Source: Thermoanaerobaculia bacterium (lineage in GTDB: Bacteria > Acidobacteriota > Thermoanaerobaculia > Multivoradales > UBA5704). Taken from it: a DNA stretch of 64,000 nucleotides. Location of the stretch: positions 7,709 through 71,708 of the forward strand of contig JBIOUG010000136.1 of the NCBI GenBank assembly GCA_044866775.1, in the 5' to 3' direction. The notes under the pieces were generated by a model. It had not been told where the DNA came from, searched no databases, and saw nothing but the letters and a program-made list of their open reading frames with translations. This document shows positions 3,834-61,554 of the stretch, piece by piece (positions within the stretch are counted from its first letter, which is position 1; each line of letters starts with the position of its first letter). The translations under genes were made by a program, and so were the position numbers.

Positions 3834-4072
3834 CACAATGCTCAAGATGACATCGGCCCGTTTGTGTCCACAGACGGTAGCCCTCCGGCGTGCGCTCTCT
3901 GGAGGCACGTGTGAGCGAGCGCTGGCAAGCCCCCTCGCAGTCACGAGCGTGTTGGCGCGAAGCGAACCCGAGGCGGGCGCCTCAGATCAGAAGTCCTCAG
4001 AGCGCCCGCCGGTGCCGGAGGGGAGCGCACGTCGGAGGGCGGTGGTTGCTCGCACGCCGGGGATCACGGGAT

Positions 4073-21411: not shown

Positions 21412-23148
21412 TCAGGGAAGCGGGGACACCACGCCGGCGCCGGCGTGCGGCGCGGTGCCGCGCGGATCGGTGGCGGCCTCGAAGCCGCCGGCGGCGAGAC
21501 GCCGTACGGCGGTGAGCTTGGGCCGGTCGCGCTCCTTGGTCAGCACGATCGCGTGGCCGCGGCGCTCGAGCTCGGCGCGGGTCTCGGGGGCGAGGGCGTC
21601 GGCCTCGACTTCCAAACGGTCGGGGAGCCACTGGTGGTGGATGCGCGGGCGGGAGAGGGCGTCGGTGAGGGTGTCGCCGTCGACGAGGAGGGCGAGGAGG
21701 GCCTGCGCGACCGAGGTCGGGATGCGCGGGCCGCCGCGGCCGCCGAGGGCCAGCGCCTCGCCCTTGCGCCAGGCGACCACCGGGGTCATCGAGGAGAGCA
21801 TCCGCTTGCCGGGGGCGATCGTGTTGGCGTCGCCCATGACCAGGCCGTTCAGGTTCGGGCGACCGGGCGCGGTGACGAAGTCGTCCATCTCGTCGTTCAG
21901 GAAGAATCCGGCGCCGGGGACGTAGAGGCCGCAGCCGAAGAGGTCGTTGACGGTCGTGGTGAGGGCCACCAGGTTGCCGGCGCCGTCGACGACCGAGAGG
22001 TGGGTGGTGTCGGTCGACTCCGGCGAAGTGGCGGTGGTCGCGGCCCAGCCGCCCCAGGGCGCCACCTCGGCCGAGGGCGCGGCCCTGCCGCGCTCGACCC
22101 CGGCGGCCAGGGCGTCGAGCCGGCGGGCCGCCAGCAGCTCGGCGGTCGTGGCGCGGCTGGTCGCCGGGTCGCCGAGCAGGGCGCGGTCGGCGAAGGAGCG
22201 GCGGAAGCTCTCGGCGAGGAGGTGCCAGCGGTCGCTGCCGCGGCGCGGGAAGCTCCCCCAGCCGAGGCGCTCGAGGGCGCCCAGGGTCTCGCCGAGGACG
22301 ACGCCGCCCGAGGACGGGAGCCCCATGGCCGCCAGCTCCCAGCCGAAGGCGCTGAAGCGCACCGGCTCGCGCCAGACCGGGCGGTAGGCGGCGAGGTCGG
22401 CGGCGCGGAGGACGCCATGGTGCGCGCGCGAGGCCGCCTCGATCGCCGCGGCGACCCGGCCCTCGGTGATGCCGGCGGGGCCGCGCTCGGCGTAGAGCGT
22501 CAGGGTGGCGGCGAGGTCCGGGAGGCGCAGGGTGCTGCCGGCGACGAGGGGCTCGCCGTCCGGGAACCAGAGCTGCGCCGTCTCCGGGAAGCGCGTCAGG
22601 AGCTTGCGCTCGCGCTCGAGGACGTCGTGGAGCTGGGTGCTGACGCGGAAGCCGTCGGCTGCCAGACGTATCGCGGGCGCCACGACGCGCGCCCAGGGCA
22701 GGCGGCCGTGGCGGCGGTGGAGCTCGTGGAGACCGGCGGGCGAGCCGGGGACGCCGGCGGCGAGGGGGCCGGCGGTGGAGGCGTCGGGCACGCGCTCGCC
22801 CTGGGCGTCGACGAACATGGTGCGATGGGCGGCGGCGGGGGCGGTCTCGCGGAAGTCGAGGGTGGTGACCTCCTTGCCGACCTTGACGACGGCGAAGCCG
22901 CCGCCGCCGAGGTTGCCGGCCTCCGGGAAGACGACGGCGAGGGCGAGGGCGGTGGCGACGGCGGCGTCGACGGCGTTGCCGCCGGCGCGGAGGATGTCGA
23001 GGCCGGCCTGGGTCGCGAGCGGCTGCTCGGAGGCTACGGCGCCGCCGGCGCCGCGGGCGGGAGGCGGGACGGCGGCGGGGAGGGGCGGCGAGGAGAGGGC
23101 GGCGAGGAGGAGCGCAGTGGCGAGGGCCAGCGACGACGTGAGGCGCAT
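21412..23148 (-). CDS. ggt: gamma-glutamyltranspeptidase
   Basis: Signal peptide MRLTSSLALATALLLA. GGNAVDAAVA...PEAGNLGGGGF...DTTHLSVVDGAGN (autocleavage Thr)...GGPRIPTSV. Confidence 0.9.
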   Translation of the reverse strand: MRLTSSLALATALLLAALSSPPLPAAVPPPARGAGGAVASEQPLATQAGLDILRAGGNAVDAAVATALALAVVFPEAGNLGGGGFAVVKVGKEVTTLDFRETAPAAAHRTMFVDAQGERVPDASTAGPLAAGVPGSPAGLHELHRRHGRLPWARVVAPAIRLAADGFRVSTQLHDVLERERKLLTRFPETAQLWFPDGEPLVAGSTLRLPDLAATLTLYAERGPAGITEGRVAAAIEAASRAHHGVLRAADLAAYRPVWREPVRFSAFGWELAAMGLPSSGGVVLGETLGALERLGWGSFPRRGSDRWHLLAESFRRSFADRALLGDPATSRATTAELLAARRLDALAAGVERGRAAPSAEVAPWGGWAATTATSPESTDTTHLSVVDGAGNLVALTTTVNDLFGCGLYVPGAGFFLNDEMDDFVTAPGRPNLNGLVMGDANTIAPGKRMLSSMTPVVAWRKGEALALGGRGGPRIPTSVAQALLALLVDGDTLTDALSRPRIHHQWLPDRLEVEADALAPETRAELERRGHAIVLTKERDRPKLTAVRRLAAGGFEAATDPRGTAPHAGAGVVSPLP

Positions 23149-57423: not shown

Positions 57424-57942
57424 TCAATCCCGTCGCGGCTCGAACAGCTCGACGGGGTTGCCGGAGGGATCATCGAGCAGGATCTGCTGGCCGCCAAAGC
57501 CGGTGACGATGTCGTTGCGGAAGCGCGCGCCCGCGCGGCGCAGGGTCGCGACCTCGCGGGCGAGGTCCGGAACCTCGAGCCGGATGCGATTCCAGCCGCC
57601 CGGCTCGGGCTTGCGCCCGTCGGGCATGGGCTGGGCCGCTCCACCGGGGCCCGCAGGCGCGCTCAGTAGGAGGCGGAGGCCGCCGCGCGAGAGAACGGCG
57701 AAGGCGGGGGCCGGTTGGCTCTCGACGCCGAAGCCGAGATGACGAGTGTAGAAGGCGACCGCGGCCTCGACGTCGTTGACGATGTAGCGCACGCTGACAG
57801 GTGCCATCGTGGATTCTCCTGGGCGGTGATCCATGTCGGCCCGGGCGGAGCCTGCCGACGCCTTCAGCCAGGACCCAGTGAGGCCGCCGATGAACAGGGC
57901 GGCGACCGCGGGGACGAGAAACCTGCGGGACTCCAGCATCAC
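57424..57942 (-). CDS. VOC (glyoxalase/bleomycin-resistance) family protein
   Basis: VRYIVNDVEAAVAFYTRHLGF...ILLDDPSGNPVELFE. The start is uncertain: the long form has a signal-like N-terminus, and the alternative is the ATG at 57807. Confidence 0.7.
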   Translation of the reverse strand: MMLESRRFLVPAVAALFIGGLTGSWLKASAGSARADMDHRPGESTMAPVSVRYIVNDVEAAVAFYTRHLGFGVESQPAPAFAVLSRGGLRLLLSAPAGPGGAAQPMPDGRKPEPGGWNRIRLEVPDLAREVATLRRAGARFRNDIVTGFGGQQILLDDPSGNPVELFEPRRD

Positions 57943-58002
57943 GACCTCCTCTACCTCATTCTGGGGCGGGGAGGAGGACTCGTATAGGAAAAACTTGACC
58001 TC

Positions 58003-58824
58003 CTACCCGGTCACTGGCACGTGATGGTCCTTGACCTGGTCGCTCCGCTGGCGAAGGTAGTCCGTGGGGCTGACGCCGGAGAATTCCCGGAAGTCGTGGA
58101 TGAGGTGCGACTGGTCGAAATACCCGCATTCCACGGCCAGTTGCGCCCAGTCCGGGGCCAACGTCTTTGGCACCCGCGCCAGGGCCCTGCGAAACCGCTG
58201 CACTCGGCCGAACCGCTTCGGCGTCAGGCCGACCTCGGCCGTGAACACCTGGATGAATCGCCGCTGGCTCAGTCCAACCTGCCGGGCGGTTTCGCGAACC
58301 GACGCGCCGGTCCCCGGCCCGAATCCATCGAGGACGGTCTGTACGGCGGCGTGGTGCTCCAGAGGGCGGAACGCGTGGTTGGCCAGGGCCTCCTCCATGA
58401 GGCGAAACCGCTCGGCCGGTGCGGTCGCCCCGCACAGCCGGGCGCGGAGCGCCACGGCCGTACGGCCCCAGAGCGTCTGCAGATCGACGTGGAGGTCGGC
58501 CAGCTCGCCCAGCGGGGCGCCGAGGAAGGGAAAGGCACCGCCCGGCTTGAAGTGCACGCCCATGATCGAAGCGTGCTGCCGCGCATCGATGACGAAGGAC
58601 CCGCGGTAGGTCCCGGATACGACCGCCCCGGAGTACCGCTGGTAGCGCTCCGGGTTGAGGGCATCGTAGATCCGGATCTCGTCGTCGCGGAGGTTGACCA
58701 CTAGCTCGGCGGTTCCGCTGGGCAAGACGCGCTCCTTCGGGTGTGGCGGGGCGTCGCTGAGCAGCCAGACGTAGTCGACGAAGTCCCCGAGCGGCGGCGC
58801 GGGATGCCGGGAAACGTACTGCAC
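58003..58824 (-). CDS. AraC-family transcriptional regulator
   Basis: The C-terminus has two HTH motifs (SVRETARQVGLSQRRFIQVFTAEVGLTPKRF...AVECGYFDQSHLIHDFREFSGVSP). Confidence 0.85.
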   Translation of the reverse strand: MQYVSRHPAPPLGDFVDYVWLLSDAPPHPKERVLPSGTAELVVNLRDDEIRIYDALNPERYQRYSGAVVSGTYRGSFVIDARQHASIMGVHFKPGGAFPFLGAPLGELADLHVDLQTLWGRTAVALRARLCGATAPAERFRLMEEALANHAFRPLEHHAAVQTVLDGFGPGTGASVRETARQVGLSQRRFIQVFTAEVGLTPKRFGRVQRFRRALARVPKTLAPDWAQLAVECGYFDQSHLIHDFREFSGVSPTDYLRQRSDQVKDHHVPVTG

Positions 58825-59060
58825 GGCCCAAGGATAAGGCCGGAGGCGACCGTTGAGGCGTTCCCGACGCTAGGGCGCGGCCTCCGACGACCACCGTCAT
58901 TCTGCCTCTACATGCGCGACCCCCGGCGTCTCCGAGGACCCCGTCGGGCGGCTGCGGGCGATGGGCGTGCCACGGCTCCAAGCCCCGCTGCCACAGGGAG
59001 TTCGATCTTCCAACGTCACACAGTCTTAAAAGGTCGAAGCGCGCTCTATAAGTCAGCCTC

Positions 59061-59090
59061 TTGACAAAATGAGAATCACAAGTCTACCCT
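59061..59090 (+). promoter_or_regulatory. sigma70-like promoter candidate pointing into the 21-nt repeat arrays
   Basis: TTGACA (59061-59066), N18, TACCCT (59085-59090), in a short AT-rich patch. Confidence 0.3.
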
Positions 59091-59237
59091 TACACCCATC
59101 AAACAAGCCCATTAGGGCCATGGACAGAAAGGAGCAGCGTGTCCTCGATCTCGCGTCGCACCCACACGAGCATCCTCTCGGCACCGGCCGACGGCTGGTG
59201 CGTGAGGACGTTCGTGCGGGCGAACGCGGGGAATCTC

Positions 59238-59489
59238 GGGGCCGAGGCCGGAGCCGCGTGGGTCGGCCCGTCGGAGCCGGGGGCGAGCGCCGCGATGAGG
59301 CAAGCGACCGCTCCGGCGATCGGGGCGACCGCCTCGCGGCACGGGGACGGCGCCTCGAAGGTTGGGGACACCGCCTCGGAGCTGCGCGGCGGCGCCTCGC
59401 AGCTCGGGGACGGCGCCTCGGAGCTCGGTGCAGGCGCCTCGGATGCCGGGGACCGCCGCTCGCAACCGCGGGCCGGCGCCTCGGAAGCT
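59238..59489 (+). repeat. tandem array of 21-nt units (left arm), consensus GGGGAC-GGCGCC-TCG-GAGCTC
   Basis: GGGGAC occurs at 59343, 59364, 59406 and 59448. In-phase degenerate units sit at 59322, 59385, 59427 and 59469, with weaker ones back to 59238. Confidence 0.85.
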
Positions 59490-59508
59490 GTTCCCCGCCG
59501 GACGGAGC

Positions 59509-59718
59509 TCCGGGGCCGCCCCTGTCCCCAGGTTCCGAGCCCCTGTCCCCAGGTTCGGAGCGCCTGTCCCCGAGCTGCGAGCGCGTTGCAACGAGGTTCG
59601 CTCCCGCGTCCCCACGCCTCGAGGCGTGCGCCCCAGGCGCCGACCTGTCGTCCCCAAGCTCCGAGCCGCTGTCCCCGATCTTCGAGAAGCCGTAATGCAG
59701 ATCCGACGGGCTGTCCCC
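59509..59718 (-). repeat. tandem array of the same 21-nt unit in reverse-complement orientation (right arm)
   Basis: GTCCCC ends at 59529, 59550, 59571, 59613, 59655, 59676 and 59718, all multiples of 21 apart. Confidence 0.85.
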
Positions 59719-59912
59719 TGTTGTCGTCGGCCGCGACCTCGGTTGCGAGCCACCGCCATGCGGTTGCTTGCCGTCCGCGCGGCCGCGCCGGCTCTCCGCT
59801 CCTCCTTCCCGGCGCACGAGCGCCTCCCCTCGCCGGCCAGTTAGCCGTCGAGCCGCCGAGGGCGCGCGTCCCGCGGCGGTGCCCGTCAACGCATTCGAGA
59901 AGGAGACATGTG

Positions 59913-60332
59913 ATGGCCAGAAAGAGGATTTCCACCCTCGTGGCGGATGTCGACGCGATCGCCACGCACCTGAAGACCCGGCTCGGCGAGGTCACGCACC
60001 TCACGGGCCTGCAGACCGAGCTCGAGGGCTGGCTCGCCGAGGCCCGTGACCTCGAGAGTCAGCGCGAAGTCCACACGGGCCGGCTGCGTCAGATCGATGC
60101 GGTGCGCCGTTCGACCGAAGCTCGTGGCGTCGAGCTGCGCGCCCGTGCAGTCGACAACCTGCGCGGTCACTTCGGTGGCCGGGCCAAGGTGTTGCTCGAG
60201 TTCGGCATCCGCCCGCGGAGCAGCGGCGGCGGCCGCCGTAAGCCGGCGACTCCCGAGCAGACGACGACGCCGGTCACCCTGGCGCCGGAGTCCTCGCCGG
60301 CGCCCCCGGGCGAGGCCGGCTCGTCGGGCTAG
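59913..60332 (+). CDS. hypothetical protein (139 aa): helical/coiled-coil-like N-terminal part, Pro/Ser-rich tail
   Basis: The ATG at 59913 is preceded by GAAGGAGA 8 nt upstream. MARKRISTLVADVDAIATHLKTRLGEVTHLTGLQTELEGWLAEARDLESQ.... The track merges it into a 397-aa ORF reading through the repeats. Confidence 0.6.
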   Translation: MARKRISTLVADVDAIATHLKTRLGEVTHLTGLQTELEGWLAEARDLESQREVHTGRLRQIDAVRRSTEARGVELRARAVDNLRGHFGGRAKVLLEFGIRPRSSGGGRRKPATPEQTTTPVTLAPESSPAPPGEAGSSG

Positions 60333-60375: not shown

Positions 60376-60411
60376 TGCTGCGGAGGGCGGTTGCACCCGC
60401 CCTCCGCAGCA
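60376..60411 (+). terminator. intrinsic-terminator-like hairpin after the 139-aa gene
   Basis: TGCTGCGGAGGGCGG-TTGCAC-CCGCCCTCCGCAGCA is a 15-bp perfect stem, followed by CTCTCTT. Confidence 0.55.
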
Positions 60412-60785
60412 CTCTCTTCCCGTCCGCGAGCTCGTGACCCCGCGGTAGACCTGTTTCTAGCGCGCTGCGACCGCCGCAAGCGCCTCCGTGGCCCGCCTGG
60501 GGCTCACCCGATCAGCCAAGTCCTCCTCGGGCTGAGTCACCAAGGCGGGCTGGGATGTCTTCCACGAACAGCCCCCACAGCTCCCGGAGGGGAGCGGGTC
60601 TTCGGGACCGCTTGGAAATGCCCTCGCCCGAGGTGAACAGAGGTGGGTAGACGCTAAGCCCCCCACCTCGCGGCGCAACGGGCCTGCGCGCACGGGTGAG
60701 GCCGCTGACATGACGCTTCACCATGCGGACGGCGCTGCCGCCGCCGGTGGAAACGAGGGTTGGGCGCTGAAAACTGCACGAGGTC

Positions 60786-61554
60786 CTATTGCACTCCCCG
60801 GAGGGAATACGAAACCTTCGAGTAAGTAGGATTGTCTCCGAGGAGCCAGTTTACAGCTACATGCCGTTCCGCGACCGTGCTGATTACGTACCTTACGATC
60901 TCTTGGGGTGCCGCCCGCCAAACGGACACCGCCAATTGCAAGATCATCGTCCACGAGTCTCAGCTTGGCGGGGTCTACCTTTAGCTCTCTGGCCAATTCG
61001 GTAACATTATTTGAAGCTGATCCTTGGTCGTCGTAAGCTTGCCGCAGTCTCCTGTGAATTAAGTAGAGTTCCCTAGCCAGTTCTTCTCTCTCAGATTTGG
61101 AGCGCAGCATGGGAGACTTCACCACCTCAAGCCCCTCGGGCTCCATAAAACCTAGTGCCTCCGCGACAGCGGGTGCGTCGGTCGGGACATCGAAGGGGTC
61201 GAGTTCCCAGCGATTAAGAGCCCAAGCCAAAACCCCTAGTCCTTCAGCCCGCCAGCCTAGATTTCTTTCTTGTTGCTCGGTAAGGGTGCCAAGCGGAGCT
61301 TCCAAGATTTCAAGCTCCTCGGGTTCCAAAGTGGAGGCGACGCCTGTGGTGTCCAACCACCGAAGCACCTCGACTCGGAAGGCTTCAGCCTCTGAATCAC
61401 CCGCGTTCTCCTCAATACCACTCCGACAGACCATGGCGGCCAAGGCGAGAGCCCGTCGCGCGACCTGTTCTGCACTCGGCATAGGTTCCTGCACCGGCAT
61501 TGCCCCTCCGATCGTAGTAGAAGCACCGCAAATTAGCAGCACGACCATCATCAT
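60786..61554 (-). pseudogene. DUF4272-like gene with an apparent +1 frameshift
   Basis: The track frame (60718..61554) loses family-like sequence after ...LAIGGVRLAGGTP. The adjacent frame continues QEIVRYVISTVAERHVAVNWLLGDNPTYSKV... to a TAG at 60786-60788. The switch is at the G4/C4 run 60905-60908. The DUF4272 call is from memory of the WR-E-LGVL-WAL and ERH-A-NWL motifs. Confidence 0.55.

Follow-up and report, generated by a model that had tools for sequence, protein, structure and literature searches.

Facing arrays of a 21-nt repeat upstream of a gene for a small, unannotated helical protein in Acidobacteriota

Introduction

Iterons are repeats of 17-22 bp bound by Rep proteins; those of the lambda replication origin lie inside gene O, and the incA and incC clusters of P1 are arranged in opposite orientation. 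In Bacillus subtilis, the terminator sites IRI and IRII upstream of rtp, the gene for the ~120-aa protein RTP, also autoregulate rtp, and oriented sites that face each other follow the logic of a replication-fork trap. In the ToxIN system, direct repeats of 36 nt (ToxI, ~5.5 copies) and a terminator precede toxN, which encodes an alpha/beta endoribonuclease. The sopC locus of the F plasmid consists of 12 repeats of 43 bp, each carrying a TGGGACC-RY-GGTCCCA inverted repeat that is bound by SopB (PMC3177203). Here, we analyse two facing arrays of a 21-nt repeat upstream of the gene for an unannotated 139-aa protein, in a stretch of 64,000 nt (hereafter, the window) from a Thermoanaerobaculia bacterium of the Acidobacteriota (assembly GCA_044866775.1, contig JBIOUG010000136.1, positions 7,709 to 71,708). 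By its architecture, F sopC/SopB appears to be the closest described counterpart of this locus. The facing arrays are a real, non-random and evolutionarily recurrent feature, and comparison with related loci suggests that they most likely represent the cis half of a conserved two-part module, in which the gene of a small helical protein is combined with an array of putative half-sites.

Results

Two facing arrays in the window

The sequence-only reading of the window had described two facing 21-nt arrays in strict phase, and both Tandem Repeats Finder (TRF) and the motif positions agree with this description. With TRF, one period-21 array was detected at 59330-59483 (7.3 copies, score 127; as period 63, score 151) and a second at 59518-59676 (7.6 copies), the unit of which is the reverse complement of the first. 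The motif GGGGAC starts at 59343, 59364, 59406 and 59448, all in one common phase, with degenerate left-arm units in phase back to ~59238-59259; GTCCCC starts at 59524, 59545, 59566, 59608, 59650, 59671 and 59713 (ends 59529 to 59718), in one other phase, and the right-arm lattice is displaced by 12 nt (modulo 21) from that of the left arm. Exact GGGGAC-N15-GGGGAC occurs four times in the window, always within the arrays, and five matches are found when one mismatch is allowed, against 1.0 expected from whole-window shuffles. The arrays and the gene that follows them are laid out as follows:

59238..59489, plus strand: left arm, ~8-11 units of 21 nt with the consensus GGGGAC-GGCGCC-TCG-GAGCTC
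59490..59508, no strand assigned: junction at which the unit orientation flips, overlapping the short palindrome CGGAGCTCCG (59503-59512)
59509..59718, minus strand: right arm, ~10 units of 21 nt, the left-arm unit reverse-complemented (GTCCCC on the plus strand)
59900..60332, plus strand: Shine-Dalgarno (SD) sequence AAGGAG (59900-59905) and the 139-aa gene, with ATG at 59913, stop at 60330-60332 and a G+C fraction at third codon positions (GC3) above 0.9

The pairing between the arms had been described as short of a perfect hairpin, with best unit pairs of about 18/21, and this is what we obtained: one arm is ~70% complementary to the inverted other arm, and the best unit pairs across the array centre match at 18/21 positions. 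Mean unit identity is 11.2/21 between left and right units, 12.6 among left units and 11.0 among right units, and a test for mirror-register complementarity between the window arms was negative, with no mirror-specific matching of units. Elsewhere in the window, a short 21-nt repeat at 22712-22764 (2.5 copies) also contains GGGGAC; it lies in protein-coding-looking sequence and is taken as coincidental.

Arrays accompany the family gene in related genomes

Loci encoding relatives of the 139-aa protein were picked by exact protein identity, so that the sample is unbiased as to repeats, and ten had usable flanks. In eight of the ten (the window and loci L082, L083, L087, L088, L002, L090 and L091), an array with a period of 21 or 42 nt lies within ~1.3 kb of the family gene, whereas background loci from related taxa, 804,566 nt in total, contain a single array region that is similar in period, length and score. 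The gene-array association is thus far above background. The lone background array (L006, 10386-10662) has a 20-nt period, CTACGCGTCTCGGATATCGA, in ~12 copies and is unrelated in sequence.

In close relatives, facing arrays are located upstream of the family gene. L082 carries 11 forward units (GGGAACAGCAGTCC...), a flip at GGGAACtcGTTCCC and then ~3 reverse units; L083 has ~5 forward AGGGAC units followed by 12 reverse units; and L088, which is identical in a second assembly (L089), shows forward AGGGAC units and then reverse units. In L087, a GGGAC array in one orientation is accompanied by a second, facing pair further upstream (1904-2193, 1.3 kb upstream of the family gene), where GGGAAATG units are followed by CATTTCCC units, all of 21 nt; these arrays are broken by AT-rich 'tcctcataaaga..aaagggtcgcggcgc' segments that recur at 126 nt. 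The leader is short in L085 and L086, where just 2-3 units remain as remnants.

In distant relatives (L002, L091/L092 and L090; 20-30% protein identity), the array is found immediately downstream of the gene and consists of 9-11 palindromes spaced 41 or 42 nt apart. The units are palindromic, GAGGGAAAG-N3-CTTTCCCTC or, in L090, GAGGGAC-N7-GTCCCTC, with the overall consensus GAGGGA(A/C)-N-(G/T)TCCCTC. In three family loci (L002, 8276-9932; L091, 3193-4792; and L154), the array stands between an M50 peptidase gene and a small convergent gene. This arrangement is also seen in L104 (3186-5054, 37% GC), but the 114-aa open reading frame (ORF) there was rejected as a family member (hhalign probability 0.1).

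A common half-site at whole helical turns

All family arrays that were found independently by TRF share the half-site GGGA(C/A) within otherwise divergent units; the motif is GGGGAC in the window, AGGGAC in L083, L088 and L090, GGGAAC in L082, and AGGGAAA in L002 and L091. Three features are kept across arrays: this half-site, a period of whole helical turns (21 bp in the window and 41/42 bp in the distant group) and units in both orientations. The arrays vary in the rest of the unit, in unit count (from ~3 to over 20), in arm ratio, in the side of the gene on which they lie and in the encoded heptad. Spacings in L091 are 41, eight times 42 and 41 nt, and those in L090 include 41 and 83; given that 41-nt units occur in all three distant arrays, these arrays are not reading frames. 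The reverse lattice is 12 nt (modulo 21) off the forward lattice in L083 and L088 as it is in the window (the offset in L082 is 7), and the half-sites within the 42-bp palindromes of the distant relatives are likewise 12 nt apart.

For stem covariation, Watson-Crick complementarity at the variable positions was compared, array by array, with the value predicted for halves that change independently of each other. For the 181 unique palindromic units of the family loci, the observed and expected counts were 117 versus 120.8, 103 versus 102.8, 94 versus 94.9 and 88 versus 89.7, with a small excess at two stem positions only (163 versus 154.7 and 95 versus 84), and 351 units from other loci behaved in the same way. 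Thus, none of the 181 and 351 units gave evidence of compensatory changes between the palindrome halves. Because stem complementarity equals the independent-halves expectation, the dyad symmetry exists only at the level of the consensus, which has the look of a dimeric protein site rather than that of a selected RNA stem.

The leader and ORF X

The surroundings of the arrays contain the following further features:

59061..59090, plus strand: promoter-like TTGACA-N18-TACCCT within a low-GC patch (59000-59130); read directly
59127..59141, plus strand: SD sequence GAAAGGAG and GTG start of the leader ORF, ORF X (AGGAG at 59130-59134, GTG at 59139)
59139..59912, plus strand: ORF X, 258 codons, stop-free and in frame into the 139-aa gene
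59852..59880, plus strand: GC-rich hairpin or palindrome GCCGCCGAGGGCGCGCGTCCCGCGGCGGT, ~30 nt 5' of the SD sequence of the gene, present in 7/7 close loci
60376..60411, plus strand: 14-bp perfect GC hairpin, GCTGCGGAGGGCGG ttgcac CCGCCCTCCGCAGC, 3' of the 139-aa gene; read directly

The TTGACA-N18-TACCCT site had been noticed before and is indeed present; a strict sigma-70 scan did not flag it. In the leader alignment, TTGACA is invariant and followed 17-18 nt downstream by a TAnnnT hexamer in the window, L083, L085 and L086. The order of elements in the window is promoter-like site, SD, GTG 59139, arrays, conserved GC hairpin, SD and 139-aa gene, suggesting that the arrays sit in the transcribed leader of this gene. 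No terminator-like site was detected between the array and the 139-aa gene in a scan of the plus strand. In the hairpin at 59852-59880, CCGCGGCGG is almost invariant, and two of the 12 predicted pairs covary (GC/GU/AU and GC/AU).

The arrays had been placed in a gene-free gap; the gap is not clearly free of genes, as ORF X, which has a good SD sequence, crosses both arms. The statement that all six frames are open is nearly accurate, with stops at 59296 (plus frame 1) and 59693 (plus frame 2). An equivalent SD sequence and start are found in L083 (3113), L082 (7190) and L085/L086, the ORF X start of L088 is GTGA-coupled to the upstream gene, and the N-terminal peptides are alike between loci (MSSISRRTH, MSSASQRLH, MSRTRTWSTH). 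GC3 of ORF X is 0.93-0.97 for 59139-59400 and 0.57-0.80 in the right arm and beyond, and the second half of the predicted product (R 19%, P 17%, C 6%, D+E 2%) has the composition typical of an off-frame reading. Translation probably starts at the GTG of ORF X, whereas the product past the first codons looks unconstrained. The sequence-only reading had seen two converging coding-like readings; we rejected a pair of convergent genes, given that the minus-strand ORF has no SD sequence and contains stops in L082 and L083. Gene callers are inconsistent over such regions and place genes of 254, 243 and 248 aa on the minus strand over the arrays of the window, L082 and L087, respectively, and of 350 and 261 aa on the plus strand in L083 and L088. 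These called genes of 243-350 aa on either strand are most likely artefacts of stop-free repeats. An exact-sequence look-up found no record of the called array ORFs, which is probably due to the translation of GTG starts as V, and tblastx between leaders, which gave scores in several frames on both strands (GC-rich low complexity), was uninformative.

The closely related pair L085 and L086 shows where constraint lies. Their family genes are 87% identical, with 16, 10 and 25 differences at codon positions 1, 2 and 3, whereas the leaders are mostly 93-100% identical, at all three codon positions, and the array remnant just 63%. The array flanks are thus constrained more than synonymous sites, while the array itself turns over fast, which suggests that the leader is functional at the nucleotide level. 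The short leader ORF of the two loci differs at five positions, too few for a significant synonymous-versus-nonsynonymous signal.

A large unannotated protein family

The close homologues of the 139-aa protein are 62-69% identical to it. A profile recovered 63 relatives in a word-indexed search and, in an exhaustive search, 1418 clusters at 50% identity (E <= 1e-3), 838 of them at E <= 1e-10. Family proteins are ~125-140 aa long and unannotated, with no Pfam domain and no name. The 139-aa protein itself had no significant match in Pfam, NCBIfam, PHROGs, PADLOC or PDB sequences, and a Foldseek search with its model gave no significant match in PDB or BFVD. The AlphaFold2 model has a predicted local distance difference test score above 95 for residues 1-100 and comprises helices at residues 6-22, 28-87 (60 residues) and 92-97, the last of which is followed by a disordered, basic, Pro-rich tail. 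The protein is thus confidently predicted to be helical, and we describe it as a small coiled coil of alpha helices that ends in a basic tail. Sequence conservation in the family includes M-(A/P)-R at the N terminus and the motif H-(F/Y)-G...L..F-G-I-(Q/R)-P-x-R.

Viral contigs and PLSDB plasmids yielded no family member, and one member is encoded on a 5.9-Mb contig. Assembly GCA_975093345.1 carries at least three paralogues of the 139-aa gene (L082, L086 and L088), and the leaders of these paralogues differ, with a GGGAAC array in L082, almost no array in L086 and an AGGGAC array in L088. In L085, a run of 25 T directly follows the stop of the family gene (3928-3952), for which an error of assembly or an atypical terminator tail may account.

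Arrays away from the family gene

JGI metagenome DNA was scanned for three consecutive GGGAM-N7-KTCCC units at 41/42-nt spacing, which returned at least 120 stretches. Among the 80 that were examined (L093-L172; GC content from 31% to 72%), 16 contain the family gene, which always ends right beside the array; for 14 of these 16, for which the array and the gene are tabulated clear of each other, the distance between them is 5-170 nt. No other recurrent protein family was found beside the gene-free arrays among the matches listed, and a protein-pattern scan of the JGI metagenomes gave no match. The high-GC JGI arrays share an extended consensus with the gene-linked arrays, and those of them that lack the gene may be further targets in trans; part of the JGI set may consist of unrelated tandem repeats that fit the pattern by chance. 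Arrays in which GGGAM-N7-KTCCC palindromes recur every 41, 42 or 21 nt are common throughout the JGI data, and an HspR-like MerR-family gene directly adjoins a 42-nt palindromic array in L100 (2311-2697) and L128.

Neighbouring genes

Upstream of the leader, an AraC-family gene (DUF6597 + HTH_18) and a downstream gene of the glyoxalase/bleomycin-resistance fold form a two-gene unit on the minus strand (57424-58824). This pair is widespread in many Acidobacteriota, Planctomycetota and other metagenome-assembled genomes (best 68% identity), and an array with the 139-aa gene was never found beside it elsewhere; the unit is unrelated to the array. On the other side, a DUF4272 gene (60718-61554, minus strand) converges on the 139-aa gene, and the hairpin at 60376-60411 is likely a terminator common to both. 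This hairpin lacks a T run and went unflagged in the terminator scan; a similar hairpin is present 3' of the homologue in L086. For the ORFs that follow the DUF4272 gene, up to ~64000, the gene table of contig L001, which is identical, lists no match to Pfam.

Discussion

Proposed phased binding sites for the adjacent protein

We tentatively favour, at somewhat less than even confidence, the reading that the arrays are phased DNA-binding sites for the adjacent coiled-coil protein, likely with an autoregulatory or architectural role. Among the explanations put forward in the sequence-only reading, iteron-like arrays that present sites on one face of the DNA fare best, given that the half-site recurs at 21 or 41/42 bp beside the family genes of eight loci and that compensatory evolution is absent from the palindromic units; the earlier suggestion to test the 139-aa protein against the array points in the same direction as the comparative data. 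We infer that the 139-aa protein is the binder, that DNA rather than RNA is its target and that the outcome is regulatory. Oligomers of the protein would line up along one face of the DNA over ~20 phased sites, and since the arrays lie between the promoter and the gene, the nucleoprotein block formed on the protein's own transcription unit would act as an autoregulatory roadblock or an architectural complex. The number of units would shift fast by slippage and by exchange between the inverted arms; such exchange would also keep the two arms alike and could explain both their concerted evolution and their changing sizes.

Several observations weigh against this reading. Sequence, profile and structure searches recovered no recognisable DNA-binding fold or family for the 139-aa protein. 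The left arm is strongly coding-like (GC3 0.93-0.97) and preceded by a proper SD sequence and start, and the 21-nt phase of the close group is never broken by plus or minus one nucleotide, as a reading frame would require. An RNA target would also be compatible with the data, because the arrays are transcribed in both layouts. A large array is not essential, considering that the close relatives L085 and L086 are almost array-free. Finally, arrays of the palindromic pattern are much commoner than the gene: ~80% of the examined JGI stretches are without it, and among the matches listed, a family gene adjoins only 6 of the 32 arrays that have 650 nt or more of flank on each side. As most listed arrays lack the family gene, a strict one-gene-one-array model is weakened; the gene-array link may run in one direction only, the protein may work in trans, or unrelated arrays may be among those counted.

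Alternative explanations

The arrays could instead act in the transcript, as a 5' leader in the window and as a 3' untranslated region in the distant relatives, either through a long imperfect hairpin or tandem stem-loops that control the 139-aa gene via stability or translation, or as RNA sites for the 139-aa protein. Repeat RNAs of type III toxin-antitoxin systems and CsrB-like sponges offer analogies for such a role, and the arrays do lie within the transcription unit in both layouts; moreover, the GC hairpin that precedes the SD sequence is kept in seven loci, with two covarying pairs, and a helical hairpin with a basic tail, as modelled, would suit an RNA binder too. The RNA of the window (59259-59740) folds at -306.5 kcal/mol, with z = -7.8 versus shuffles, but this score is not specific because any inverted array folds strongly. 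The sequence-only reading had proposed a long imperfect inverted-repeat 5' leader. Its location is borne out, with the promoter-like site in four loci and the arrays between promoter and gene, whereas selection for a long hairpin is not: the arms are very unequal (11 versus 3 units in L082, 5 versus 12 in L083), two relatives are almost array-free, and there is neither a mirror register nor register-specific complementarity. Together with the lack of compensatory changes, the frequent central mismatches (e.g., GGGAC with TTCCC), the lack of an Rfam family match and the exact periodicity of 21 and 41/42 nt, which would be left unexplained, this makes an RNA-level function unlikely.

ORF X could genuinely encode a heptad-repeat protein that is probably disordered; the arrays would then be no more than its codons, and the inversion an accident kept by gene conversion. 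A good SD sequence and start are kept in several loci, in all loci with an array the plus frame stays open from this start until the next gene or beyond, the N-terminal peptides are similar, the 21-nt phase of the close group is strict, and GC3, high in the first half in the window, is 0.77-0.97 through most of ORF X in L083 and L088, falling only at the 3' end. In the frame of GTG 59139, the left arm yields ASELGDG-type heptads that resemble the xxxLxxG repeat of TIGR03057; we rejected the assignment, given that the match (15.6 bits, E = 0.014, cut-off 18.6) covers only residues 79-102 of ORF X and that the heptad is not kept in relatives. Indeed, the repeat peptide differs by locus (GDGASEL in the window, RDCAAES in L083, GRDxxVI in L088 and, with the motif in another frame, WEQQSSD in L082), the second half of ORF X is rich in R, P, S, C and W with almost no D or E, as in an off-frame reading, its length varies between ~57 and 350 aa, and the frame in which it stands to the gene that follows changes from locus to locus. 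A search of 5.8 billion proteins with the 397-aa ORF recovered no homologue, although low complexity may have swamped this search, the 8000 candidates having nothing but low-complexity words in common with the query. Since the related 41/42-nt arrays cannot be coding, and the L085/L086 leader is conserved at all three codon positions, we consider a protein-coding origin of the arrays distinctly unlikely. The related proposal of a decayed inverted duplication of a heptad-repeat gene fails in its 'decayed' part, as the facing layout is kept in four diverged loci, whereas the left arm does lie in a probably translated ORF. Translation of ORF X and selection on the DNA motif may co-exist, so that the two readings are not fully exclusive. 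Least probable, in our assessment, is a neutral or selfish minisatellite, in which a slippage-prone palindromic seed grows and shrinks without function and the association with the gene reflects a shared hotspot. Copy number does range from ~3 to more than 20 between relatives, no part of the leader evolves faster than the array remnant, and similar arrays occur without the gene in many unrelated contexts and GC contents; nevertheless, the half-site and the helical period persist at 20-30% protein identity and despite the differing array position, the gene-array association far exceeds background, and the 12-nt half-site spacing across subfamilies would not be expected.

Wider implications

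Returning to phased binding sites for the adjacent protein, a wider version, which we regard as doubtful yet worth stating, is that the ~130-aa coiled-coil family of more than 1400 clusters, which lacks any known DNA-binding fold, polymerises on GGGA(C/A) arrays at two or four helical turns, which would constitute a new class of chromosomal protein-DNA array system of soil Acidobacteriota. The facing arrays would then form a symmetric block, i.e., a transcriptional roadblock or insulator, or a two-sided replication-fork barrier, and the gene-free arrays elsewhere in these genomes would be trans targets of the family protein. If the favoured reading of phased binding sites is right, it would open a way into a large protein family, wholly unannotated, of an uncultured soil lineage, by offering a defined half-site as its likely ligand, two or four helical turns as the geometry and an autoregulatory circuit that can be tested. 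For annotators, the locus is a caution that stop-free repeats may yield spurious gene calls.

Comparison with known systems

The sequence-only reading knew of no described element with this layout, in agreement with our searches of databases and the literature, in which we found no description of either the 139-aa family or the facing-array layout. Rfam covariance models gave only noise, with best scores of 16-21 bits versus gathering scores of 45-59. A CRISPR array was rejected because whole 21- and 42-nt units are repeated and the segments between the palindromes are conserved too. The tandem array transcribed just upstream of a small protein gene recalls the layout of ToxIN; type III toxin-antitoxin systems (ToxIN/CptIN/TenpIN) were nevertheless rejected, given the lack of a PADLOC or Pfam match, the inverted repeats and the lack of an intervening terminator-like site. 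Similar to rtp, the small protein gene of the window is preceded by inverted candidate sites. However, RTP is a winged-helix protein with two sites, whereas here there are ~20 phased units, no winged helix and several paralogues per genome, and the distant relatives carry non-polar palindromes; the GC-skew profile of the window, inspected for a terminus, shows no switch.

The window shares with iterons short repeats of about two turns in opposed clusters that lie within probable coding sequence, adjoin the gene of a putative binder and have an AT-richer patch nearby (59000-59130). Unlike iterons, these arrays have no plasmid or phage context, occur in several copies per genome and accompany a 139-aa coiled coil, and no Rep-like domain was found in any neighbour. 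With regard to partition systems, the 139-aa protein, by sequence or model, is not of the ParB/helix-turn-helix (or ribbon-helix-helix) type, in contrast to ParABS and SopABC, and the gene tables of the ten loci contain no ParA, ParM or TubZ NTPase gene beside the array. In further contrast to plasmid-borne sopC, the loci are chromosomal and have no match in PLSDB plasmids or viral contigs, and the half-sites of the window form two facing 21-bp arrays, which lie inside an ORF upstream of the gene. Shared with sopC are a period of approximately four helical turns in the 41/42-bp family arrays (versus 43 bp), 10-12 inverted-repeat units and GGGAC in the half-site, and in L002, L090 and L091 the array directly adjoins the small gene of the proposed binder, so that tandem inverted-repeat sites beside the gene of a putative binder are present in these three loci and in the metagenome loci with the family gene. 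If the favoured reading is true, the family would add a new protein architecture to the few known binders of phased arrays, which include Rep on iterons and ParB/SopB on centromeres.

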